The position numbers and the translations under genes were made by a program. Below are positions 34,743 through 57,057 of a stretch of DNA of 64,000 nt, piece by piece. Position 1 is the first letter of the stretch. Each line of letters opens with the position of its first letter. Origin of the DNA: Spirochaetia bacterium. Lineage in GTDB: Bacteria; Spirochaetota; Spirochaetia; CADAEX01. The notes below the pieces were generated by a model, which was not told the origin of the DNA, did no database searches, and saw only the letters and a program-made list of their open reading frames with translations. Location: assembly GCA_963662265.2 (NCBI GenBank), contig CAXXHA010000010.1, positions 128,001 through 192,000 on the forward strand. The letters are read 5' to 3'.

Positions 34743-35543
34743 CTATAACGGGCTCTTCACCCTCTTTGATACAGGGTCTGCAAGGTTTATATAGATCATT
34801 GTTGTCTTGACCGATTTATGCCCCAGAAGATCCTTAACTGTCTTGATATCAATCCCGGCCTCTATCAGGTGCGTGGCGAAACAATGCCTGAGAGTATGGC
34901 AGGTTGCACTTTTCTGAATCAAACTCTTATTGAGAGCATTCTCGAATATTTTCTGGACCGTCCTTACAGAATATTTCTTCCCTGAAATTGTCCTGAAAAC
35001 ATAATCAGAAGCATTTCTCCCTGCAGTAAGCTGTCTTAAAGATTCTGAATACTTTTCCGAAAGAAGAGTAATCCTGTCCTTGTTCCCCTTGGAATCCCTT
35101 ATCTTAAGCGATAAGTCATTGAAATTAATATCCCTTATTTTTATTCTGCAGACCTCACTCACACGGAGACCGCTGCCGTAAAGAAGGGAGATAATAAGCT
35201 GATGCTTTTTGTTCTCAATATTTCCTAGAAGCTTAAGGACCTCCTCCCTTGAAAGAATATCGGGAAGCCTTTTCCTTGTTCTTACCCTGTCAAGCTTATA
35301 AGGACAGGGCTTGTCCAGTACAAGAGTATAAAACAGCTTTATCGCTGACCAGGCAAGCCTTCTCTGCTCACTCGAACTCTCTTCATTTTCAAGAAAAAGA
35401 GCAATCCTCCTTTCAGGATCAAAATCAGTTTTCCGGGAATATTCAAGAAAATGCTTCAGATGACCCGTATAAATCCTTACAGTATTTTTCGAATAATTCC
35501 GGTTCTTAAGCTCCCTTGTAAAATCTTCAAGATAATTTTTCAT
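34743..35543 (-). CDS. Tyrosine recombinase, IntI-like but lacking the IntI-specific insertion (putative integron integrase)
   Basis: RNYSKNT N-terminal SAM-like domain, RLPDILS, LLYGSGLRVSE, SKGNKDR, HTLRHCFATHL, LLGH, TTMIY, C-terminal KSPL. All catalytic residues R-K-H-R-H-Y present. ATG 35543 has a G-rich RBS. Confidence 0.9.
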   Translation of the reverse strand: MKNYLEDFTRELKNRNYSKNTVRIYTGHLKHFLEYSRKTDFDPERRIALFLENEESSSEQRRLAWSAIKLFYTLVLDKPCPYKLDRVRTRKRLPDILSREEVLKLLGNIENKKHQLIISLLYGSGLRVSEVCRIKIRDINFNDLSLKIRDSKGNKDRITLLSEKYSESLRQLTAGRNASDYVFRTISGKKYSVRTVQKIFENALNKSLIQKSATCHTLRHCFATHLIEAGIDIKTVKDLLGHKSVKTTMIYINLADPVSKRVKSPL

Positions 35544-35590
35544 GAAAAACGACCCCCTAGTATGTATAACAAGGGAAAAAGTAATTCTGC

Positions 35591-35619
35591 TTGAATTATA
35601 CACCCGCAGACTTTAAAAT
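35591..35619 (+). promoter_or_regulatory. Pc-like sigma70 promoter facing the cassette array
   Basis: TTGAAT-17 bp-TAAAAT, 25 bp upstream of the attI core. Confidence 0.55.
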
Positions 35620-35650
35620 TATCATGCAATACAGACAATTATAGTTATCG
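35619..35650 (+). other. attI-like site (repeat copy 2 plus core G/TTATCG, crossover between 35644 and 35645)
   Basis: First GTT of the array with no upstream attC arm. GTTATCG..TGACAGGC is complementary to the end of cassette 1 (GCCTGTCA..CGATAAC). Confidence 0.75.
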
Positions 35651-35866
35651 TAAATGACAGGCCTTTGGAAATTTAGAAAGTCATTGATTCTTGACTTCTT
35701 TCTTCATGGCAAGGAACACAGCTGTATAAATTCAATTGTGAATTATGATGCTAATTATTGAAATATTAAGAATAGTTAAAATGCCGAGAATTAAATTTGA
35801 AGAAGCCATGAAGAAATTCTGACTTACATTGATTTGTAGATCTTGAAGCCTGTCACTCCCGATAAC
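35645..35866 (+). other. ORF-less cassette 1 body
   Basis: About 220 bp with no ORF of 60 aa or more; ends form a long imperfect inverted repeat including TTTCTTCATGGC/GCCATGAAGAAA. Confidence 0.7.
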
Positions 35867-36029
35867 AGAGAATACCCGGTTCAGGCATAAGTAGTAAAAA
35901 GTATAGGGCTTAACTGCCGTTCACCCAAAATGTCGGAGCTTTTCTTGTTGCGTGTAAAATCTGGTAGGTATATGATTATTTTAATACGTGGAGAATCCGA
36001 CATCTTCGGATATTCTCAGAACGTTAAGT
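35860..36029 (+). repeat. attC-like site 1 (long type, 170 bp)
   Basis: CGATAAC-A-GAGAATACCCG...CGGATATTCTC-AGAAC-GTTAAGT; closely similar to 37032-37202 and 45660-45827. Confidence 0.9.
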
Positions 36030-37031: not shown

Positions 37032-37202
37032 ACTTAACAGAGAATACCACGGTTCAGGCTTAAGCAGTAGAAGCATGTAGCAAAACAGCCGTTCACCCAA
37101 AATGTCGGGACTTTTTATTGTTGCAGGTGGAATCTGTTGGGTATAAGATTAATTAAATATCTGGAGCATCCGACATCTTCGGGTATTCTCAGAACGTTAT
37201 GT
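37032..37202 (+). repeat. attC-like site 2 (long type, 171 bp)
   Basis: ACTTAAC-A-GAGAATACC...GGTATTCTC-AGAAC-GTTATGT. Confidence 0.9.
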
Positions 37203-37431
37203 ACAATGAGCCCGACAAGAGGAAGACGCCCGGACCTCCGGCCGACGGGCGAAGAGATAATATATATATGTTATATCGAAAGAAGGAGTAAAAATGAGAT
37301 TGAAGGCATTAATATTAGAGAACTTCCGAGGCTATTCTGGAGTAAATTTAATTAATTTTGAAAAAGACTGGAAATGGCAAGTCATTTTCCCCACATTTAG
37401 GAAATTAAAAATCCCCCACCTGCAGAAAAAA

Positions 37432-38172
37432 TTATACCCCCTTTTTCTCCTGAATTCTATATGAATCTCCCTCAAGGGAGAAAACATGCGCATGATGTAA
37501 AAGCCTATCAAGCATTGCTGTTGTCATGATTTCATCACCCATCATTTCAGACCACTGATCAAAACCTTTATTTGAAGTAATTATTACTGACGATCTTTCA
37601 TAGAGTTCGCTGATAAGATTAAAAAAAAGATTGGCCTCTTTTCTGTCGATAGGCGTATAGCCTATTTCATCAATAATTAGTAACGAAGATCTGAGAATCC
37701 TGTTTATTCTGAATGAACTTGATCTCATAGTTTCCATTGTTTTCAACAGTTTTATTAGTGAAGTTATCCTTTCAAAACAGACAGTGTATCCGGCTTCAAT
37801 TGCCTTGTACCCGAGAGCAATTGATAGATGTGTTTTCCCAAGGCCGGGAGGTCCAAAGAACATGATATTTTCAGATTTATCTATCCACCTGAAATCCTTG
37901 AGATTATTTAACTGTTCTTCAGTTATCCCTTTTATTCTTGAAAAATTGAATGTCTCAAGTTCCTTAATTACAGGAAAATGGGCACCTGTAAGATTTCTAT
38001 GAAGACGTCTTTCATTTCTGAAATGTACTTCTTCTGTAAGAAGGATGCTTAAAAAATCAAGATGAGATATTTTCTCCTTTGTTGCTTTTTCAAGTGCCTC
38101 ATCAAGATTAACAGATATTCCTTTAAGCTTTAGACTATCAAGTATTCCTGTACAGTAATCAAAACAGCTCAT
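37432..38172 (-). CDS. istB: IS21 helper ATPase
   Basis: GPPGLGKTHL, LLIIDEIGY, ITSN, AMLDRLLHH. Confidence 0.95.
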   Translation of the reverse strand: MSCFDYCTGILDSLKLKGISVNLDEALEKATKEKISHLDFLSILLTEEVHFRNERRLHRNLTGAHFPVIKELETFNFSRIKGITEEQLNNLKDFRWIDKSENIMFFGPPGLGKTHLSIALGYKAIEAGYTVCFERITSLIKLLKTMETMRSSSFRINRILRSSLLIIDEIGYTPIDRKEANLFFNLISELYERSSVIITSNKGFDQWSEMMGDEIMTTAMLDRLLHHAHVFSLEGDSYRIQEKKGV

Positions 38173-39731
38173 AAAGCACCTCCTAAAAGACTTACAAGTG
38201 AGGTGTAGTAACTTAAATCCCTTTTCTTTACTTCTATGTTTTTATTCTCATGTTTTACAGCTTTTATTCCTGTAAGAAGCTGTGGCAGAATATCCGGATA
38301 ATTTTCAGTTTCACAGCTTCTTACATAAAGATAAGACTCTTCAAAATTCCTTGCAGATAGTGTTCCGTTTTCAATGCATAAATCTGCAGTTTTTGCTATT
38401 AACTTATCATCAGGATTTGAGTTTATGAAAGCATAAAGCTCGCGCTGCTGATCTCTGTAATACCTGCTGTATTTTTTGTAATTCTGATCAACATATTGTT
38501 TCCATGAGTTACTGCTAAATCTGTTCTTTAATTTTTTGATAACTTCATCGGGCTTGGAATCATAATTCCTGAAATGATTATGTTTGGTTATTTTTTTCCC
38601 CTTTATCGGTGAGATTTTGTGCCTGGCAATCTCTTCTCCATCTATTTTGTCATAGATAAAAAGGTCTGTATCTGTTTGGTAAATCCAGACAGTTTTTTTT
38701 CTGAACCTGTTAGGGACAGAGTAAAATGAAGATGAAACACTTATCAATGATTTACTATTTACTTCCCTTGATTCTTTATTTATGATGCTTTCCCTTCTGA
38801 AAATAGACGGCTTTAATTTTTTAAAATGTGGAATCTCTTTAAGCAAAGCTTCTTGAGGAATTATTCCAGTTGCCTGGCATATTTTACCGTTAGCTCTTCT
38901 TGAAAGCCAATTATTTAATGCCTCCTGTATTTGATCAAAGGATGTGAAATGTCTTGCTGAAAAGAAACTGCTTTTGATGAATTTCACAAAGTTTTCGACT
39001 TTACCTTTGCTCTCAGGGTCTGCTTTTCTGCAGACATACATCTTAAACCCCTGCTCATCCTTGAAGGCTTTAAATTCTTTTGTATACTTAATATCTCCGC
39101 TGTTTTCTTTAACAACCATGACTTTGTCCTGATCAATCACGATTTCTTCAGGTACCCCTCCTATTATTTCAAAGGTATCAAGTAAATGATTTATCACATC
39201 TATGGATTTAAACGGCCTCTTCTGTACTGCTGCATACTTGAATCTGCTTACAGATAGAATGACTCCAAAGATATATACTTTCTCACCGGTTTCTATTTCA
39301 GTTTCTCCGAAATCAAGCTGTAGTTGTTTTCCATGTGGAAGTTCTTCAACCGGTGTATAGATTCTCTTGTATTCGTAATTATCTACTTCTCCTGTTTTCT
39401 TTAAGAAAATGAGATAATTTCTCAAAGTCCTTTCAGTGCCGGGAAGTTCTCCATATTTTTCTTCAAGAACATCATAGATTGATGAAGTGTATATTTTATT
39501 GTTATTTAAATTAAAAATATTCAGTATTTCATCTTTGAAAGGAGCAAAAATCTTTTCCTTTTCTACACTGTTTATCTGGTATTCAAGATACTCTGCTTCC
39601 GACATTTCAAAGTATTTTCTAACTGTTTTTCTGTCGATTTTTAATTCTCTGGATATTTTCCTTTTTGAATATCCTCTATTCTTGAAAACTCTTATTTTTT
39701 GGTACATATTCATAGTAATCATTTGAGTCAT
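38169..39731 (-). CDS. istA: IS21 transposase
   Basis: N-terminal HTH, QLDFG, GGVPEEIVIDQ, PESKGKVEN. Confidence 0.95.
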   Translation of the reverse strand: MTQMITMNMYQKIRVFKNRGYSKRKISRELKIDRKTVRKYFEMSEAEYLEYQINSVEKEKIFAPFKDEILNIFNLNNNKIYTSSIYDVLEEKYGELPGTERTLRNYLIFLKKTGEVDNYEYKRIYTPVEELPHGKQLQLDFGETEIETGEKVYIFGVILSVSRFKYAAVQKRPFKSIDVINHLLDTFEIIGGVPEEIVIDQDKVMVVKENSGDIKYTKEFKAFKDEQGFKMYVCRKADPESKGKVENFVKFIKSSFFSARHFTSFDQIQEALNNWLSRRANGKICQATGIIPQEALLKEIPHFKKLKPSIFRRESIINKESREVNSKSLISVSSSFYSVPNRFRKKTVWIYQTDTDLFIYDKIDGEEIARHKISPIKGKKITKHNHFRNYDSKPDEVIKKLKNRFSSNSWKQYVDQNYKKYSRYYRDQQRELYAFINSNPDDKLIAKTADLCIENGTLSARNFEESYLYVRSCETENYPDILPQLLTGIKAVKHENKNIEVKKRDLSYYTSLVSLLGGAL

Positions 39732-41717
39732 TCCTGGTAGTTTTTGTCGTGATTACATACTAAGGTTTGACTCTTTTTTTTCCTATAGGGTGGGGAATTT
39801 TATTTTCCATCCTATGGGGATTTCATGTTACCATTTCCAAAGACCTAACATCTTTTATAGGAAAGAATGATAGTGGTAAGTCATCAATTCTTGAAGCTCT
39901 TGAGATATTTTTTAATAGTAAAGTTATTAAAATTGATGGTGATGATAAATTTGTACGTTCATTAGAAAATATTGTGAATATTGGTTGTGTTTTTACGGAT
40001 CTTCCAGAAAAAGTCATTATTGATGAAACTAATGAGACATCATTTATAGATGAATATCTTACAAATGAAAATGAGGATTTGGTTGTTTTAAAGAGATTTA
40101 AAATACAGAAAACTGCAAGTAAACCGGAAACATTTATAATAGCAAATCATCCTAGTAAAACTGGTTATGACGACTTACATAGTTTAAAAATCGGCGAATT
40201 AAAGAAGAGAGGAAAAGAATTAGGTATTAAAGATACCGTAGAAGATCAGAGAATTAGTGCTCATTGGAGAAAAGCGATTTGGTCTTCAACTGATAATTTG
40301 GAAATACAAAAATCTGAAATTGAAATTACACAATTAAGCACAGAATCAAAAAAATTATATACAAGAATAAGTGAAGCAATGCCAACATTTGCTCTTTTCC
40401 GATCAGATAGAGAAAGTAGTGACTCTGATCCCGAAGCGAAAGACCCTATGCAATTAGCAGTAAATGAAGCAAAAAAAACTTATGAAGCTCAAATTAATGA
40501 ATTACAAGAGAAAATAGAAAAAAGTGTTTTCGAGGTTGCAGAAAGAACGCTAGAAAAAATGAATGAAATGGATCCTTCTTTAGCTAATGAATTGAACCCA
40601 AGATTAAAAGAAACACCAAAATGGAGTTTTAGTTTTACAATTGATGGTGATGAAAATATTCCAATTAATAAGAGAGGTAGTGGGGTCAGGAGACTTGTTC
40701 TTTTAAATTTCTTTAGAGCAGAAGCTGAAAGAAAGAAAATTCAAAATCATTCTCCTGATGTAATATATGCAATTGAAGAACCTGAAACATCTCAGCATCC
40801 GAATTATCAGCAATTATTGATTGATTCATTGATAGCATTATCACAAAATGATAATTGTCAGGTTTTATTAACAACACATGTTCCAGCATTGGCAGAAAGA
40901 TTAGAAATTAACTCTATTAGATTTATTGAGAAAATCGGATTAGGTGAAATTAAAGTTCATATGCATAATGATTATGTTTTAGAATTAGCTACAGAAAGTT
41001 TAGGGATAATGCCTGAAAAAGAAATATCTTTAGCCAATAAAGTTATATTAGTTGAAGGTCATAGTGATATAACATTTTTGAATAAAATTAGTGAAGAATA
41101 TAAGAATGCGGGAGAAATAACGTCAACATTAAGTGATTCAAAAATATATCCAATACCTATTGGTGGATGCGGGAATCTTAAACATTGGATAACCAAACGC
41201 ATAATAGATAAAATGGGAATAGAATATTTTATTTTAATGGATTCAGATTTAGGAGATCCAGTAAATAATTCTAGAAACATTACTAAAATAAATGAAATTA
41301 ATACAAATGGTCAAATCGGATATTTAACAAATAAACGAGAACCTGAGAACTATATTGATCCAGATTTATTGAAAACAAAGTATGATAAAGATATTAGATA
41401 CACTAACACTTGTGATGCGAAAAAAATAATTGGAAAAGAATTAACAATTAGACCAAATGATGTTCTTGAGTTTATATGGCCACATATGGAATATCAGCAT
41501 ATGAAAAAAATGGCGAAATATGGTGATAAAGATGAATTCAAAGAGTGGATGGATGCGTTCTTAGAATAATGATAATATGAATATTCTAGCTAAGAAGATT
41601 ATAATGGTGAAGAATCCAAACCTCTGAAATAAAGACAAATAGAGAATGTAATTACTTTTTACAAATAGTATTGCTGACGATATTTTTAAGAATAGCTTAA
41701 ATATCTGGTAGAATACG

Positions 41718-41746
41718 TTCAATAACAATTAAATAAATGGTATAAT
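41718..41746 (+). promoter_or_regulatory. Internal sigma70 promoter for the methyltransferase (probably leaderless mRNA)
   Basis: TTCAAT-17-TATAAT with extended TGn; ATGs 3 and 6 nt downstream of the -10. Confidence 0.5.
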
Positions 41747-41749
41747 TTT

Positions 41750-43546
41750 ATGATGGAAACGAGTCTTTCAGTTCTTATTGAAGATTTATCAGTCTCAGCA
41801 AAGAAATATGAAAATGAATATAACGATGATGAGATGCTTACATTTGCTATTTCATTTTGTCAGAGATTAATATCAACATATTGGCAGATTAATATCTCTG
41901 ATACAAAATATTCAATTACTCCGTATAATTCTGAGCTATATGGATATCTGAAAGGGCAACCAATAATTATTGCTGATCAAATCGCACAGTTATTATCTGC
42001 AATGCCAAATAAGGATGCTGGTTTCTTTATTGGAAATATTTATACATCATTACTTCCGAAGAATGTCAGGTCAAAAAACGGCGCTTATTACACACCTCCA
42101 ATACTCGTACAAAGATTATTAACATCTATTGATAACTATAGATTTGATTGGATTAATAGTAAAATATTGGATCCTTCATGTGGTGGAGCTGCATTTCTTA
42201 CAAGTATATCCAGATTTATTATTGAAAAATATAAACATGAATTATCAGCAGATGATTTATTTTCCTTTATTGAAAAAAACATACAAGGGTATGAAATTGA
42301 TCCTTTTGCAGCATGGATCTCACAAACATTGTTGGAATTTGAATTATATGATCTATATCTCAAAGTAAATAAAAGAATAAAAAAAATCATTTCTGTAACT
42401 AATTCCCTTGAGGAAAATTACGACAAGAATTTTGACCTTATCATAGGAAATCCCCCTTATGGAAAAGTAACAATTGAAAAAAACTTAAGAGAGAAATTCA
42501 GTAATAGCGTATATGGACATGCCAATCTTTATGGATTATTTACAGATTTAGCATTAAATCTTTTAAATGAAAATGGATATATAGCCTATGTTACTCCAAC
42601 TTCGTTTTTGGGTGGAAATTATTTTAAGAATTTAAGAAAACTTTTAGGAGAAAATTCTCCTTTAGTTTCTATTGATTTCATAAAAGATAGAAGTGGCGTT
42701 TTTAGTGATGTTCTTCAAGAAACAGCACTAGCAATATATAAAAAATCAAAATTTGTAAAAAAAGTTGAAATATCTGAATTATCAACTACAAAAAATCTTG
42801 ATTCCTTATCAATTATAAAAATTGGAAGTTTGCTAGTTAATCAAAATACAGAAAAACCCTGGCTTATTCCAAGAGAAAAAGATCAATTATCGTTATATAA
42901 GAATATTTCTTCCTTCGAGTATACTTTACGGGACTATGGATTTAAGGTCCGTACTGGACAACTTGTATGGAACAGACACAAGGAACAATTATCAAGTTCA
43001 AAAAGAAACTCTTATCCTTTAATATGGGCCGAATCCATATTAAGAAATGGAAATTTTGAATTTAAATATACAAAGAAGAATCATTTCCCATACTTTAAAT
43101 TGGAAAGAAAACAAAATTATTTACTCACAAATAAAGAATGTATTATATTACAGCGAACAACATCTAAAGAACAAAGTAGAAGATTAATATCTTCAATACT
43201 TCCAAATGAATTTATTAGTCAATATGGTGGTGTAGTTATTGAAAACCATATTAATATTATAGAACAGAATGAAGAAACAGTTTTAGATTTAGTTACACTT
43301 AATATCTTGTTAAATTCAATAGCAATAGATAGAATTTTTCGTTGTATTAATGGCAGTGTAGCCGTTTCTGCTTATGAGTTAAATTCAATACCATTTCCAT
43401 CCCCAGAAAAGATTTTGAATCTAAAAAAATTCTTAATTAAAAATGATAAACGAAGCTCAATAGAAGAATATATTCTAGATATTTATGGAGGCAATATTGA
43501 TGAGTCAACTTCCTACAGTTCAATCGATACAAGACAAACTGGATAA
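41750..43546 (+). CDS. N6-adenine DNA methyltransferase (BsuBI/PstI/Eco57I-like, gamma class)
   Basis: GAYYTP, LDPSCGGAAFL, IIGNPPY, TRD with LQRTTSKEQSRRL. Confidence 0.92.
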   Translation: MMETSLSVLIEDLSVSAKKYENEYNDDEMLTFAISFCQRLISTYWQINISDTKYSITPYNSELYGYLKGQPIIIADQIAQLLSAMPNKDAGFFIGNIYTSLLPKNVRSKNGAYYTPPILVQRLLTSIDNYRFDWINSKILDPSCGGAAFLTSISRFIIEKYKHELSADDLFSFIEKNIQGYEIDPFAAWISQTLLEFELYDLYLKVNKRIKKIISVTNSLEENYDKNFDLIIGNPPYGKVTIEKNLREKFSNSVYGHANLYGLFTDLALNLLNENGYIAYVTPTSFLGGNYFKNLRKLLGENSPLVSIDFIKDRSGVFSDVLQETALAIYKKSKFVKKVEISELSTTKNLDSLSIIKIGSLLVNQNTEKPWLIPREKDQLSLYKNISSFEYTLRDYGFKVRTGQLVWNRHKEQLSSSKRNSYPLIWAESILRNGNFEFKYTKKNHFPYFKLERKQNYLLTNKECIILQRTTSKEQSRRLISSILPNEFISQYGGVVIENHINIIEQNEETVLDLVTLNILLNSIAIDRIFRCINGSVAVSAYELNSIPFPSPEKILNLKKFLIKNDKRSSIEEYILDIYGGNIDESTSYSSIDTRQTG

Positions 43547-44582
43547 AATATTTCCTCAGGGTTTAGAAAACAGAGGTTATTTGACTCGAGAAATGGCTGC
43601 CAAGACAATATTTGTTATGATTTATTCAACAGCAGTTGAAGGAACAGATATTTGGATTAGACCTGATCAAATTACAAAAATGACTGATAAGCAAGCAGCC
43701 ATTACCGATATTGATAAAAGAGAAGAATGGTATGAAATGACACTTCGTCCTGGAGCTATGAAGGATATTAAAGATCGATGGTATGCTGCAAATACAAGAG
43801 AACCTATTAGAGATGAAACATTAAGATACGGTCTGATAGTGTATAATGCGGTAATAGAGCGCGCAGGTTTACCTACAACATCTTCAAAACCAAGATATGC
43901 TCTACAACGGGAATTCTATGAATTATTTATGGTTGACGAAAATGCAGATGATTTTATTAAAAATTGGCAAGATAAATATTTATCTGCTGAATCATTAGCT
44001 CGGGTAAAATTATTAGGTCAATCAAAACAATCAAAAACTAATAATGAAAATATTTTGATTGATCTGCCAGATGGTCAGAGAAGAAAAATGCTTCCTGGAC
44101 CAAGTTCATTTCTTACAAAAGCAACTGTAGAATTATTCTGTAAATCTTTTTTAAAAAATCCCGTTGTAATTTTCATTAGTGAATCAGGGAATAAAGTAGT
44201 ACTTAAAGATGATGAATTAGCAAAATCAATTGGATTTAATATTCCAGCGGAAAAAAGTTTACCAGATCTGATAATCGCTGATCTTACTGATGACAATACG
44301 CTAATATATTTTATTGAAATAGTTGCAACAGACGGCCCAATTAACAGAAAAAGAAAAGATGATTTGCTGAAAATTGTAGCTGAATCTTCATTTAAAAGAG
44401 AGAATGTATTTTTTATGACGGTATTTGAAGATAGGAATTCAGCACCCTTTAAGAAAAATATATCTTCGATAGCACCAAATACACTTATTTGGTTTGCCTC
44501 AGAACCTGAATTTATAATGATCTGGAATTCTTTAAAAAATTATAAAATTGCAGATATGTCTAGTTTCATAAATGAAACATAA
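43500..44582 (+). CDS. BsuBI/PstI family type II restriction endonuclease
   Basis: WYAANTREPIRDETLR, LPDLII..FIEIVATDGPI (PD-(D/E)xK type); overlaps the MTase end. Confidence 0.9.
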   Translation: MSQLPTVQSIQDKLDKIFPQGLENRGYLTREMAAKTIFVMIYSTAVEGTDIWIRPDQITKMTDKQAAITDIDKREEWYEMTLRPGAMKDIKDRWYAANTREPIRDETLRYGLIVYNAVIERAGLPTTSSKPRYALQREFYELFMVDENADDFIKNWQDKYLSAESLARVKLLGQSKQSKTNNENILIDLPDGQRRKMLPGPSSFLTKATVELFCKSFLKNPVVIFISESGNKVVLKDDELAKSIGFNIPAEKSLPDLIIADLTDDNTLIYFIEIVATDGPINRKRKDDLLKIVAESSFKRENVFFMTVFEDRNSAPFKKNISSIAPNTLIWFASEPEFIMIWNSLKNYKIADMSSFINET

Positions 44583-44677
44583 AAAATAGTTTCAGTAGTC
44601 TTGGCTATTTTTTTTAAAGTATAAATGAAGAATCCAGACCTAACTCCGTTGAACGGTCTGGATGTCGGGCTCAAAGC

Positions 44678-44759
44678 ACATAACAGCGAATATGCGGTTT
44701 CGCTTCGCTTTACCCAAACTGGCCTTTGGCCAGCTTCGCATATTCGCGGAACGTTATGA
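44678..44759 (+). repeat. attC-like site 3 (short type, 82 bp)
   Basis: ACATAAC-A-GCGAATATGCG...CGCATATTCGC-GGAAC-GTTATGA, perfect 11-bp stem. Confidence 0.9.
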
Positions 44760-44834: not shown

Positions 44835-45164
44835 TTAAACACTTAGTATTTTATGATCTTCCAGAATATTACCATCCATTTCTAACAACTGCAAAAATCT
44901 AGAAGCTGGTCCTTGAGGTTTGTTTCTACCGGATTCCCAGGCTTCAACCGTTTTTACAGATACACCAAGTGCTTCTGCGAAAATAGTCTGTGATAAATTC
45001 AATGATAACCGGATTTGTTTTATTTTGGATGCATCATATTTTGGAATTGGAGAAATACTGACTTTCCTTCTTTTTACTGAAGGTAATTTACCTTTACTAT
45101 ATTCAAGAGATTCATTGAGTCCGGAGATAATTGAGTTATAATAATTTTTATCATCGTTTTTCAT
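44835..45164 (-). CDS. HigA-like HTH antitoxin
   Basis: IRLSLNLSQTIFAEALGVSVKTVEAWESGRNKP. Confidence 0.9.
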   Translation of the reverse strand: MKNDDKNYYNSIISGLNESLEYSKGKLPSVKRRKVSISPIPKYDASKIKQIRLSLNLSQTIFAEALGVSVKTVEAWESGRNKPQGPASRFLQLLEMDGNILEDHKILSV

Positions 45165-45514
45165 TTCTGCCCTCCGTTCGTACGTAAATTATTCTTAATC
45201 TGATCTATCAAAGACTTAATATTGTTTTTTTCACCTTTCGTAAGACTTTGCTTTTCACTTTTTCTAAAACAGGCAATCATATGAATCTGTTCAAATGATG
45301 CAAAATCAACATATAGTGTTCTTACGCCACCACTTTTACCTTTTCCTGGAACTGACCATCGAAGCTTTCGCAAGCCCCCTGTTCCTTGAATCATTTTTCC
45401 AGCTTCAGGATTCTCACAAAGCAATATCTCAAGATCTTTGAGATCATCATCTGTCAAATTGGCATCTGCCCACTGTTTTTCGAATGTTGGCATATACACA
45501 AATTCTCGTGTCAT
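45161..45514 (-). CDS. RelE/HigB-like toxin
   Basis: NPEAGKMIQGTGGLRKLRW, GKSGGVR; upstream of the antitoxin. Confidence 0.9.
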   Translation of the reverse strand: MTREFVYMPTFEKQWADANLTDDDLKDLEILLCENPEAGKMIQGTGGLRKLRWSVPGKGKSGGVRTLYVDFASFEQIHMIACFRKSEKQSLTKGEKNNIKSLIDQIKNNLRTNGGQK

Positions 45515-45659: not shown

Positions 45660-45827
45660 ACATAACAGAGAATACCCGGTTCAGGCATAAGCAGTAAAAG
45701 TTCGGGGCTTAACAGCCTTTCACCCAAAATGTCGGAACTTTCTTGTTGCAGGTGGAAACTGGAGGGTATATGATTAATCAAATATCTGAGGCATCCGACA
45801 TCTTCGGGTATTCTCAAAACGTTATGT
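45660..45827 (+). repeat. attC-like site 4 (long type, 168 bp)
   Basis: ACATAAC-A-GAGAATACCCG...CGGGTATTCTC-AAAAC-GTTATGT. Confidence 0.9.
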
Positions 45828-46550: not shown

Positions 46551-46578
46551 GATACAACCAGATGAGACCAAAAACTGA

Positions 46579-46593: not shown

Positions 46594-46650
46594 TGGCATT
46601 CCCCCAAAACTGTAGACACTTGATATACTTAGAAACTAAGGAGTATTAAA

Positions 46651-46938
46651 GTGCCAAAGAGTCCCTACACAGAAGAATTTAAAGACGAAATATTAAAGCA
46701 AATAATGGAAGAAGAACACAGTGTTCTTGAAGTATCAAAAGCAACAGGAATAAGTGACGTTACTCTTTATAACTGGCTTAGAAAGGCCGGGTGGAAATCC
46801 GGGGAGTCTCGAGAAAAGAAAAAATTAACAGAAGCAGAAAAGGAAAACAGAGAATTAAAAGCAGAGATCAGAAAGCTTAAGATGGAGCGTGATATCTTAA
46901 AAAAGGCCGCAGCGTACTTTGCGAAGGAGTCCCAGTAA
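46651..46938 (+). CDS. IS3 OrfA
   Basis: YTEEFK HTH, ERDILKKAAAYF; A6G slippery site at 46899-46905. Confidence 0.92.
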   Translation: MPKSPYTEEFKDEILKQIMEEEHSVLEVSKATGISDVTLYNWLRKAGWKSGESREKKKLTEAEKENRELKAEIRKLKMERDILKKAAAYFAKESQ

Positions 46939-47795
46939 AGTACGCTTTTATTCGGGACAACAGAAAAGCGTTTCCAATTCGCCCTATGTGCAGGATATTA
47001 AAAGTTAATCCATCAGGATTTTATCGGTGGTTAAAAACACCAGAATCTCCTAGAACAATAGAAAATAAAAAAGTGACAGAACTAATCCGTTTTTACTGGG
47101 AAGAAAGCGGTCAAGTATATGGAAGTCCAAATATACATGAGGATCTAAAAGAAGCAGGTTATAGCTACGGTGTTAATCGGGTTGCTCGTTTGATGAGAGT
47201 AGCTGGAATAAAAGGTGCTTACAGACGGAAACGGCATCATGTACCTTGGGTTCCTGGAGAAATTTACCAGAAGAATACTTTGAATAGAGAATTTTCTGTT
47301 GCTGAGCCAAATCAAGCTTGGTGTACTGATATAACATATATCCGAACTTATGAAGGCTGGTTATATCTGGCAGTAGTAATTGATCTATTTAACAGAGGAG
47401 TTGTTGGCTGGTCGATGAAGAATCATCAGAAAGCAATTATTGTTATGGATGCTTTGTTTATGGCAGTAAAAAGAAGAAGACCTACAAAGTCTGTTCTTAT
47501 CCATTCTGATCAAGGGTGTCAGTTTACAAGTAAGGATTGGGAGGATTTTTGTGAGGCCCACTCTTTGGAAATTAGCATGAGTAGAAGAGGTAATTGTTGG
47601 GATAATTCTGTAGTTGAATCATTCTTTTCAAATCTTAAAAGAGAAAGAATCAGGAATAAAATTTATAAAACCAGAGAGGAGGCAAGAAAAGATATTTTTA
47701 ATTATATTGAAATGTTTTACAATACAAAAAGACGGCATGGTCATTTAGGAAAGCGAAGCCCTGCTGATTTTGAAGATAAGTTTTCATCAGATTAA
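46935..47795 (+). CDS. IS3 OrfB (DDE integrase core; expressed as OrfAB by -1 frameshift)
   Basis: WCTDITYI, HSDQGCQF, GNCWDNSVVESFF; the 5' coordinate is approximate. Confidence 0.92.
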   Translation, partial: VKYAFIRDNRKAFPIRPMCRILKVNPSGFYRWLKTPESPRTIENKKVTELIRFYWEESGQVYGSPNIHEDLKEAGYSYGVNRVARLMRVAGIKGAYRRKRHHVPWVPGEIYQKNTLNREFSVAEPNQAWCTDITYIRTYEGWLYLAVVIDLFNRGVVGWSMKNHQKAIIVMDALFMAVKRRRPTKSVLIHSDQGCQFTSKDWEDFCEAHSLEISMSRRGNCWDNSVVESFFSNLKRERIRNKIYKTREEARKDIFNYIEMFYNTKRRHGHLGKRSPADFEDKFSSD

Positions 47796-47822
47796 AGTGT
47801 CTACAGAATCAGGGGAATGCCA

Positions 47823-48420: not shown

Positions 48421-48502
48421 TTACAACAAGAAATATACGATTCTGCTTCACTCCAACCAAATACGGAGTTGCCACACTTCGCATATTCCTGAAACGTTAC
48501 AG
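48421..48502 (+). repeat. attC-like site 6 (short type)
   Basis: TTACAAC-A-AGAAATATACGA...TCGCATATTCCT-GAAAC-GTTACAG. Confidence 0.8.
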
Positions 48503-49082: not shown

Positions 49083-49166
49083 CTATAACAGCGCATGTGC
49101 GGTGCTGCATTCGGCTTTACGCAAATTGGCCTTTGACCAACATCGCATATTCGCAATACGTTGTAC
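49083..49166 (+). repeat. attC-like site 7 (short type)
   Basis: CTATAAC-A-GCGCATGTGCG...CGCATATTCGC-AATAC-GTTGTAC. Confidence 0.8.
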
Positions 49167-50613: not shown

Positions 50614-50706
50614 TCATAACAGGGGCTATTTACTCCGCCAAGTCGGGCTTCGTGCTGCACCATTTTTGGCCTAAGCCAAACATCACATAACCCAAGAACG
50701 TTATTG
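50614..50706 (+). repeat. attC-like site 9
   Basis: TCATAAC-AGGGGCTAT...ATAACCCAAGAAC-GTTATTG. Confidence 0.7.
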
Positions 50707-51665: not shown

Positions 51666-51748
51666 CAAGAACAGTGAATATGTGGTTCAGCATTCAGCAT
51701 CTCCCAAAATGCCGTTGACCAACATCGCATATTTACAAAACATTATAG
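51666..51748 (+). repeat. attC-like site 10, degenerate (GTT changed to ATT)
   Basis: CAAGAAC-A-GTGAATATGTG...CGCATATTTAC-AAAAC-ATTATAG. Confidence 0.7.
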
Positions 51749-52243: not shown

Positions 52244-52333
52244 CAAGAACAGACAATATATGATCCGCCCAGCTACGGGCTCGCCAAATCCATTACTTAG
52301 TGCTAGACTTCATATATTTCTTAAACGTTATAT
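52244..52333 (+). repeat. attC-like site 11, degenerate
   Basis: CAAGAAC-AGACAATATATGA...TCATATATTTCTTAAAC-GTTATAT. Confidence 0.7.
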
Positions 52334-53521: not shown

Positions 53522-53630
53522 GCAACTAGGGTGCTCGATAAACTTAATGTTTTTATAAAGAAGTTTGTTGATCCAGAGATTTAGAATCCAGACCGAACTC
53601 TGTTTAATATTCTGAATGTTGAACCAAAGC

Positions 53631-54463: not shown

Positions 54464-54820
54464 ATACAGCCAAAAGAATTAGTAAAATTATGGGTAGATG
54501 CTTTTAATGATGGAGATGCAACAAGAATATCCGATTTCTATGCAGAAAATGCTGTTAACCACCAGGTAGCTAATGAACCAGTTGAAGGAAAATCTGCAAT
54601 AACTGATATGTTTAAACAGGAATTTTCTGCTGCAAAAATGGTTTGTGTAGTTGAAAATATTTTTCAAGATGGAGATTGGGCAATTCTTGAATGGAAAGAT
54701 CCTTTAGGATTACGGGGCTGCGGCTTTTTTCATATCTTAAATGATAAAATAATTTTTCAGAGAGGTTATTGGGATAAACTCAGTTTTTTAAAAGCACATA
54801 ACTTGCCAATTCCAGAATAG
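54464..54820 (+). pseudogene. SnoaL-like/NTF2 family protein, start codon apparently ATA
   Basis: Frame open from 54464: IQPKELVKLWVDAFNDGDA...AILEWKDPLGLRGCGFF..QRGYWD; GGAG RBS upstream. Confidence 0.7.
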
Positions 54821-54828
54821 AAAACTTC

Positions 54829-54926
54829 TCTTAACAGCAAATATGCACTTCATCATTCAGCTTCTCTTAAAAACAGCAATTTGCCGGCTTTGCAGTAAAT
54901 ATAGCATTCCAACTAAAACTTTATAT
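54829..54926 (+). repeat. attC-like relic
   Basis: TCTTAAC-A-GCAAATATGCA left arm is recognisable; right arm eroded. Confidence 0.5.
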
Positions 54927-56796: not shown

Positions 56797-56934
56797 ATGC
56801 TTGAATGGAAAGATCCTTTAGGATTACGGGGCTGCGGCTTTTTCCATATCTTAAATGATAAAATAATTTTTCAGAGAGGTTATTGGGATAAGCTCAGTTT
56901 TTTAAAAGTACATAATTTGCCGATCCCAGAATAG
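56797..56934 (+). pseudogene. Duplicated 3' fragment of the SnoaL-like gene
   Basis: 56800-56934 is nearly identical to 54686-54820. Confidence 0.85.
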
Positions 56935-56939
56935 TTTTT

Positions 56940-57018
56940 TTTCAACAAATATGCAGTTCAGCTTTTCGCTTCACCTGAACTGGATGTTGGTAAATAAGCA
57001 TTTATGAGAAACATTGGG
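56940..57018 (+). repeat. attC-like relic
   Basis: CAACAAATATGCAGTTCAGC...GCATTTATGAGAAAC-ATTGGGT, resembling the short-type sites. Confidence 0.5.
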
Positions 57019-57057
57019 TATAATAAAAAACTTTGACGGAGGATTTAGGAGGTAAGA

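Follow-up and report, generated by a model that had tools for sequence, protein, structure and literature searches.

Asymmetric attC-type hairpin sites beside an insertion-less tyrosine recombinase in a Spirochaetia bacterium: a probable integron variant

The DNA analyzed in this study is a 64,000-nt stretch of contig CAXXHA010000010.1 of a Spirochaetia bacterium (hereafter the window; coordinates are window positions). Between 35.8 and 57 kb, on the + strand, it contains a cassette array with attC-like hairpin sites, and at the edge of this array lies the gene of a 266-aa tyrosine recombinase that is devoid of the insertion specific to integron integrases (IntI). The sites have an unusual, asymmetric layout, which recurs next to insertion-less integrases in other genomes of the phylum. 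We consider it likely that this sedentary chromosomal array and the adjacent recombinase, as its cognate enzyme, form a variant of the integron.

Anatomy of the Sites

Each arm of a canonical attC site has a 5-6-nt spacer, and two or three bases are extrahelical (Nivina 2016, PMC5027507). In the canonical definition, these bases belong to the L'' arm and are spaced by ~6 bp. The ten complete sites of the window (starting at 35861, 37033, 44679, 45661, 48422, 49084, 50615, 51667, 52245, and 52808) have the general layout RYYYAAC-A-[11-nt arm]...[11-nt arm]-NNNNN-GTTRRR. In all ten, one A forms the 5' spacer and the 3' spacer is 5 nt long; a 5-6-nt unpaired spacer on each arm occurs in none of them. 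The 3' spacer ends in AAC in nine sites (the exception being AATAC at 49155), and R' is GTT in nine (ATT at 51742). The inverse pairing of both cores (CATAAC...GTTATG and variants) is present throughout, in one case with ATT. Read in this 1/5 register, the arms form 11 Watson-Crick pairs in the sites at 44679, 45661, and 52808 and 10, 9, 9, 9, 9, 8, and 7 pairs in the other seven. An earlier reading of the sequence (the original prediction) had described both the 1-versus-5 nt asymmetry and three perfect stems (sites 3, 4, and 12), and both descriptions are confirmed. It had also claimed that the proximal stem has no extrahelical base. This holds for seven of the ten sites, which have no extrahelical base in the L'' arm, but two or three sites have extra unpaired bases at unconserved positions (an A near bp 9 at 37033, a C after bp 3 at 52245, and an irregular stem at 50615).

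The site at 44679-44758 may serve as an example. R'' (CATAAC, 44679-44684) is followed by the single A (44685) and by L'' (GCGAATATGCG, 44686-44696). After 40 nt, the other arm consists of L' (CGCATATTCGC, 44737-44747), the spacer GGAAC (44748-44752), and R' (GTTATG, 44753-44758). A repeat search found both 11-nt arms to be 100% complementary. Folded with DNA parameters, the bottom strand reaches -20.5 kcal/mol versus -17.0 kcal/mol for the top strand. The bottom-strand fold begins with an R helix of 6 bp, extended by a G.T pair; a bulge of 4-5 nt follows on one arm only, immediately 3' of the AAC containing the crossover, and then an uninterrupted stem of ~11 bp.

The complete sites and the remnants, found at five places (46580, 50036, 53631, 54830, and 56942), are listed below. 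Bit scores are those of R1, a covariance model built from seven window sites.

35861-36028, + strand: site 1, long (168 nt), GATAAC-A-GAGAATACCCG...CGGATATTCTC-AGAAC-GTTAAG; 10/11 Watson-Crick pairs, the lone A.C of the top strand being G.T on the bottom strand; 25.9 bits
37033-37201, + strand: site 2, long, one extra A in the 5' arm; 28.2 bits
44679-44758, + strand: site 3, CATAAC-A-GCGAATATGCG...CGCATATTCGC-GGAAC-GTTATG, perfect 11-bp stem; 89.5 bits
45661-45826, + strand: site 4, long, perfect 11-bp stem GAGAATACCCG/CGGGTATTCTC, 3' spacer AAAAC; 43.4 bits
46580-46593, + strand: site 5, 5' half only (CATAACAGCGAATA), cut by an IS3-family element with inverted repeats at 46594-46620 and 47796-47822
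48422-48501, + strand: site 6, TACAAC-A-AGAAATATACG...CGCATATTCCT-GAAAC-GTTACA; nine Watson-Crick pairs plus two A.C of the top strand (G.T on the bottom strand); 79.5 bits
49084-49165, + strand: site 7, TATAAC-A-GCGCATGTGCG...CGCATATTCGC-AATAC-GTTGTA; 85.4 bits
50036-50059, + strand: site 8, 3' half only (CCCATATTCGT-GAAAC-GTTATA), after a truncated acetyltransferase fragment; 22.1 bits, E 0.053
50615-50705, + strand: site 9, same ends, irregular stem (7/11 in register 1/5); 64.4 bits
51667-51747, + strand: site 10, AAGAAC-A-GTGAATATGTG...CGCATATTTAC-AAAAC-ATTATA, R' degenerate; 80.5 bits
52245-52332, + strand: site 11, extra C in the 5' arm; 69.2 bits
52808-52892, + strand: site 12, CGTAAC-A-AGAAATATGCA...TGCATATTTCT-GAAAC-GTTTGG, perfect 11-bp stem; 74.9 bits
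53631-53747, + strand: degenerate or hybrid site, TAAG for TAAC, arms mismatched (from sequence and fold)
54830-54848, + strand: 5' half site (from sequence)
56942-57024, + strand: last recognizable site, degenerate; 27.7 bits

The three long-form sites (35861, 37033, and 45661; ~168 nt) share a conserved loop insert. This insert (sites 35861-36028, 37033-37201, and 45661-45826) is ~120 nt long, has stems of its own (GTTCACCCAAAATGTCGG...CCGACATCTTCGG), and is 89-91% identical to a site at 5253-5425 in the relative L001.

Pairing, Covariation, and Strand Stability

At least nine of 11 Watson-Crick pairs in register 1/5 are found seven times in the window, always on the + strand and between 35.8 and 52.9 kb, while the - strand gives no match by this criterion. 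In 100 first-order shuffles, the same criterion yields 1.13 matches on average and at most 4, both strands combined. A first, loose script scan drowned in chance matches and was replaced by the curated sites and by a fold-based scanner (see below). When all spacer combinations were laid out as a matrix, only the diagonal on which the 3' spacer exceeds the 5' spacer by 4 nt paired well (mean 8.0-8.7 of 11). Symmetric registers gave just 4-7 of 11 pairs per site, and an equally good 5/5-6 register, which would have contradicted the asymmetry, was thus looked for and not obtained in the window sites.

The stem is 88% paired within the window, and both sides have changed in seven of its 11 pairs. 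An alignment of 36 R1 matches from 18 sources shows a stem that is 94.8% paired, with both-side changes in all 11 pairs; this alignment was fitted to R1, which favors the structure. None of 500 shuffles reaches the observed value, and slid partners pair at 41% at most. The three AAC/GTT pairs are invariant in 36, 36, and 34 of these sites, respectively. The compensatory changes bear out the earlier statement that pairing is kept while stem sequences differ.

Strand stability was compared after orienting the sites with the long spacer on the 5' arm of the bottom strand, or by their bulges in the case of canonical sites. Of 51 distinct asymmetric sites, 48 have the more stable fold on the bottom strand, with a mean difference of 4.27 kcal/mol. 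The same treatment of 79 distinct canonical sites favored the bottom strand in 71 cases versus 7, by 2.4 kcal/mol, which is close to the advantage of 2.12 kcal/mol published for 263 attC sites (Nivina 2016, PMC5027507). The bias of the asymmetric sites fits their use as a folded single strand.

These results bear on a different reading, in which both strands are exchanged in duplex DNA as by Xer enzymes, the palindrome AACGTT acts as the central region, and the hairpin is incidental or serves cruciform extrusion. It would agree with the expectation that insertion-less relatives of IntI act on duplex DNA (Escudero 2016, 2020), and AACGTT indeed occurs ten times in the window, nine times at the 3' end of a site. 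The palindrome is not kept in related families, however, where TTTCGTT or GGTCGTT is found instead. The arms flanking the crossover vary as well, and they do so in concert with a partner at a distance of 40-130 nt, which indicates selection for intrastrand pairing rather than for a duplex binding sequence. Since the bottom-strand bias also speaks against it, we regard duplex exchange as unlikely.

The Adjacent Recombinase Lacks the Integron-Specific Insertion

34743-35543, - strand: 266-aa tyrosine recombinase, IntI/Xer-like (from profiles and motifs); an upstream GTG at 35603 would give 286 aa

The recombinase gene is divergent from the cassettes, with the first site located 258-318 nt from the integrase start. 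The catalytic motifs GLR, KGNK, HTLRH, LGH, and IY are in place. The match of the protein to TIGR02249, the integron-integrase model, reaches 204.9 bits, below the cut-off of 265, and is split into two stretches, the first of which covers profile positions 2-177 of 315; positions ~178-239 are skipped. The alignment with VchIntIA (structure 2a3v) is likewise in two pieces (residues 11-182 and 195-266 against 12-188 and 246-317 of the chain) and leaves ~45 VchIntIA residues (189-245) without a counterpart. Box I and HxxRH are 91 aa apart, versus 133 aa in canonical IntI. On the strength of the split, sub-cut-off profile match, the gap against 2a3v, and the short motif distance, we conclude that the IntI-specific insertion (I2; intI_Cterm region) is absent, as had been predicted for the neighboring integrase.

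The best solved relative, and the best contiguous sequence match, is 4a8e, a XerA-like protein of Pyrococcus. The score on the NCBIfam family XerA_Arch (NF040815) is 206.1 bits, below its cut-off of 220, and the enzyme faces at least ten complete hairpin sites, so that it does not fall within the XerA/dif family. Other Xer-like genes are present elsewhere in the same genome. Five relatives of the short integrase gave two-stretch, sub-cut-off TIGR02249 matches as well, and the distance from box I to HxxRH was 91-97 aa in 28 of the 31 insertion-less proteins (those in which it could be measured). Most insertion-less integrases and the canonical IntI of the phylum have an N-terminal extension of ~100 aa; the 266-aa protein and two of its relatives do not.

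A Canonical Integron Coexists in the Same Genome

Contig C8 of the same genome carries a canonical integron (region 58000-78862). Its IntI matches TIGR02249 in one stretch (profile 2-315) with 382.5 bits and is accompanied, on the opposite strand and within 20 kb, by 20 classical attC sites of the layout TAAC-AATAA-GTTG(G)AGC(A)G...C-GCT-CAAC-TGGGC-GTTAT. The method used for the window sites recovers 5/5 spacers and single-base bulges here, in agreement with the published anatomy and with what the original prediction had said of canonical sites.

The comparison of covariance models that had been proposed was carried out with R1 and with R2, built from ten canonical C8 sites. Each class is missed by the model of the other. 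Within the genome, all R1 matches lie in the window, and on the C8 array R1 gave no match better than E 0.41. R2 gave 84 matches, all in canonical loci of this genome and four others, and none on the arrays of the window, L001, L054, L130, and L136. Two site classes thus coexist in one genome without mixing.

Site Layout and Integrase Type Across the Phylum

When 401 genomes of the phylum were searched with the short integrase as query, 117 gave matches at E <= 1e-40; 42 genomes of the same sample have a canonical IntI. Stretches of up to 20-40 kb around 29 insertion-less and 10 canonical genes were then examined with the fold-based scanner, which forces AAC and GTT to pair, folds the bottom strand (dG, the folding free energy, <= -15), and reads spacers and bulges. 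The tally is as follows.

31 insertion-less loci (window and L001 included): 54 asymmetric bulge-free sites, 19 canonical-type sites; 12 loci with at least two asymmetric sites
11 canonical loci: 1 asymmetric bulge-free site, 80 canonical-type sites; no locus with at least two asymmetric sites

R1 matched around six of nine insertion-less genes in a first batch and six of 20 in a second, and nowhere in the 20 stretches around 10 canonical IntI genes. Used on the +-1.5-kb loci of 29 integrase homologues, R1 gave one weak match (E 0.6), the flanks being too short and the model too family-specific. The spacer excess next to the crossover differs between families (1/5, 3/5, 3/6, and 4/6, or 2-4 nt), and the bulges of the canonical arrays lie at bp 5-6 and 10-12. 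The predicted NNAAC form of the 3' spacer, which fits nine of the ten window sites, is confined to two groups, the window's family and another clade; of this motif, just the C preceding GTT is general.

The insertion-less integrase gene borders the array, with 0.2-5 kb between it and the first site, and is either divergent or co-oriented. None of the ten genomes carrying asymmetric arrays (91-100% complete) has a canonical IntI. Site layout thus appears to go with integrase type, a well-supported association in view of two mutually blind models and the comparative tally, and the predicted match between asymmetric layout and domain-less integrase is borne out to that extent.

In a tree of the integrases, the canonical IntI form one clade (SH-aLRT 100) and the insertion-less proteins at least three lineages. 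The tree was made by a quick method with the insertion columns kept, and two Xer-like outgroups from the bacterium's own genome were long-branched and stood apart, which leaves it unrooted with respect to gain or loss of the insertion.

The site class recurs in other arrays of the phylum, with single matches in other phyla. Single sites of 1/5 layout were seen in L008 (metagenome-assembled genome, MAG, of Kapabacteria), L009 (MAG of a Methanophagaceae archaeon), and L012 (Belliella). They adjoin broken or insertion-less recombinase genes, and one of them lies in an archaeal bin.

Cassettes, Context, and Candidate attI Sites

From 35.9 to ~57 kb, ORFs (open reading frames) lie on the + strand with a site after each, and the array has the promoterless cassettes, each an ORF plus a site, adjoining an integrase that characterize integrons. 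The attC-type identity of the sites is supported. Among the products of the cassettes are five GNAT acetyltransferases, a DUF1697 protein, an isochorismatase, an EamA transporter, a flavodoxin-like protein, a NUDIX protein, and a Cass2/GyrI regulator, and one reverse-oriented cassette encodes a toxin-antitoxin pair. Further features of the region are the following.

35586-35660, + strand: block conserved with L001 (from the alignment with this 82%-identical relative); may hold promoters and the candidate attI crossover GTTATC at 35644-35649
44835-45514, - strand: RelE-like toxin and HTH (helix-turn-helix) antitoxin cassette, reverse orientation (Pfam PF06296, PF01381)
46594-47822, + strand: IS3-family insertion sequence (IS) within the array (transposase Pfam matches)

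L001 is syntenic with the window on the core side (70-80% identity), and its integrase lies in the corresponding place, but its array shares no cassette with that of the window, only sites. The block with the candidate attI is kept in L001 and not in a third relative (G044). In four other related genomes (L132, L135, L136, and L140; family f19), homology ends at GAGTTGGAG/TTAGGC, ~100-130 nt past the integrase stop codon; judged from the sequences, this break looks like an attI-type crossover of the insertion-less integrase.

Stable hairpins just after ORFs could also act as RNA, namely as terminators or REP-like (repetitive extragenic palindromic) elements, and not in recombination. The hairpins of the window have AAC/GTT cores conserved outside the stem, no T run behind them, a tyrosine recombinase at the edge of their array, and no Rfam match at gathering thresholds. 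Moreover, the units they flank differ completely between relatives at the syntenic locus, and a homologous site stands exactly at a cassette boundary of a class 1 integron (see below). A role as RNA is therefore highly improbable.

The IS3-family element seems to be specific to the strain of the window, since the contigs of another sample (runs X6-X8) continue without it: the cassette ending at 46578 runs into an intact 44678-like site, with joint sides of 79 letters in two runs and 41 in one. Most contig joints had sides shorter than 30 letters and were set aside.

The stretch 37203-44678 contains an IS21 element (37432-39731) and genes for an OLD-family ATPase/TOPRIM protein (39767-41569), an Eco57I-type methylase (41750-43546), and a BsuBI/PstI-type endonuclease (43485-44582). 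The whole stretch may represent one large defense cassette that the IS has disrupted. A ~45-nt block with a small hairpin (GAATCCAGACC...GGTCTGG) is common to ~44630-44678 and ~53585-53630, ahead of two different sites. A C-terminal protein fragment (...WKDPLGLRGCGFFHILNDKIIFQRGYWDKLSFLK...) occurs twice (54608-54820 and ~56815-56935) with a degenerate site after each copy, which looks like a duplicated, decaying cassette.

Assignment of the Array to an Enzyme

The array could instead be a cluster of attC sites lacking integron integrases (CALIN), serviced in trans by the C8 IntI or left as a relic, with the short recombinase being an unrelated Xer-like or mobile-element enzyme. Several points speak for this and weigh against the recombinase as cognate enzyme. 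The genome encodes a full IntI on C8, which could act in trans on the window sites. A homologous site is found at a class 1 cassette boundary, and IntI1 may have handled one once, though its arms are mismatched. The array is partly decayed, with two IS elements and half or degenerate sites at five places, and no recombination product or excision was seen, the contigs of other samples giving just short, ambiguous joints. Concerning the survey, 19 of the 31 insertion-less loci have fewer than two asymmetric sites in the stretch examined, and in one genome (G317), which accounts for nine of the 19 canonical-type sites at such loci, the canonical array reaches the insertion-less gene, so that this recombinase adjoins canonical sites. 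The site classes and the thresholds were chosen post hoc, genomes that are related do not count as independent, and R1 and R2 were each built from one array. Messier and Roy reportedly stated as early as 2001, in the title of their paper, that the insertion is needed for attC recombination. A later account says the same (Escudero 2020, PMC7790495), and recombinases without intI_Cterm near attC have been judged to be "not IntI," with 29 of 50 such cases having an IntI elsewhere (Cury 2016, PMC4889954).

Other observations fit poorly with service in trans. The C8 IntI has its own array of the other site class, and neither array is mixed. Canonical IntI is absent from ten genomes in which asymmetric arrays occur together with an insertion-less integrase, many genomes from several families have the insertion-less gene bordering the array, and in four genomes an attI-like crossover adjoins this gene. 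We therefore consider a CALIN improbable and the insertion-less recombinase the likely enzyme of the array.

Proposed Mechanism

Strand choice and the denial of a second cleavage are ascribed, for canonical sites, to the extrahelical bases and I2 (Escudero 2016). The original prediction suggested that the 4-nt excess next to the crossover replaces the extrahelical bases, and the geometry of the sites indicates how it might set strand choice. On the bottom strand, the scissile AA/C would keep the canonical distance of ~6 nt to the L arm (C plus 5 nt), with ~2 nt (G plus 1 nt) on the opposite arm. A top-strand fold would leave just 2 nt after AAC, so that the bottom-strand fold alone would seat both monomers in the correct positions. 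For the L-side monomer, no phosphate would lie at a distance suitable for cleavage. Strand choice and single strand exchange could in this way dispense with extrahelical bases and the I2 helix, the product being resolved by replication.

The acquisition of I2 has been put forward as the innovation of integron integrases, for which intermediates are lacking (Escudero 2020, PMC7790495). It is plausible, with about as much to be said for it as against it, that the recombinase and its array belong to a second integron lineage without I2, in which a one-sided excess of 2-4 nt sets strand choice and blocks the second cleavage. Such a lineage would be orthogonal to the canonical integron in one cell and might correspond to the pre-I2 "intermediates" of Escudero 2020.

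Significance and Comparison with Known Systems

According to the accepted account, I2 and the extrahelical bases enable integron integrases to read and recombine folded single strands. Here, insertion-less relatives of IntI are paired, across genomes, with arrays that obey another structural rule. If this pairing is functional, it offers a natural test of strand choice and single-strand exchange without I2. In that case, the insertion-less enzymes would also be candidates for the evolutionary steps missing between Xer and IntI, and cassette arrays would be undercounted by surveys in which both the insertion profile and the canonical attC model are required. By its integrase, the array of the window would be filed as a CALIN in the sense of IntegronFinder, if its sites were detected at all. 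The sites may also bear on the origin of some aminoglycoside acetyltransferase cassettes in class 1 integrons.

We found no description of the asymmetric site class or its link to insertion-less integrases in the literature searched, which did not extend to supplements and subscription journals. An attC model for Spirochaetes, to which six aacA cassettes were assigned, has been published (Ghaly 2021, PMC8352920), and this "Spirochaetes-type" attC is probably the same or an overlapping site family. The accessible part of that article makes no mention of spacer asymmetry, absence of bulges, or an insertion-less integrase, and describes IntI as gathered solely by the profile of the additional domain.

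The site after aac(6')-Ib in the class 1 integron of the Klebsiella plasmid NZ_CP044036 (L013, 3998-4092) is homologous to the window sites in loop and ends. It scores 37.2 bits with R1 and keeps the ends AAC-A...GGAAC-GTT, but the two arms fail to pair with each other. As proof that IntI1 uses this class, the site was rejected because its arms are unpaired and because a match over at least 80% of the query occurs in only one of 72,556 plasmid records.

The array shares several traits with canonical integrons (VchIntIA and its VCR sites, the Vibrio cholerae repeats; IntI1; C8). These are a tyrosine recombinase at the edge, ~40% identical to the IntIs of the phylum, promoterless cassettes in one orientation that end in an imperfect inverted repeat with RYYYAAC...GTTRRRY cores, a more stable bottom strand, reversed toxin-antitoxin cassettes, and cassette turnover at a fixed locus. 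It differs in that the integrase has no I2, the spacers are 1/5 instead of 5-6 nt per arm, and the sites have a continuous L stem of ~11 bp without conserved extrahelical bases.

The CTX phage recombines its attP(+) with XerC/D by a single strand exchange, which is followed by replication. This system is a precedent for insertion-less Xer-type enzymes that act on a folded single strand of phage DNA (Escudero 2020, PMC7790495). It differs in having one phage site plus the host dif, two different recombinases, and neither a cassette array nor attC-type R/L boxes. The XerA/dif system of archaea, finally, has the domain layout of the 266-aa protein, likewise without the insertion, but acts at a single dif site, whereas many cassette-flanking hairpins are present here.

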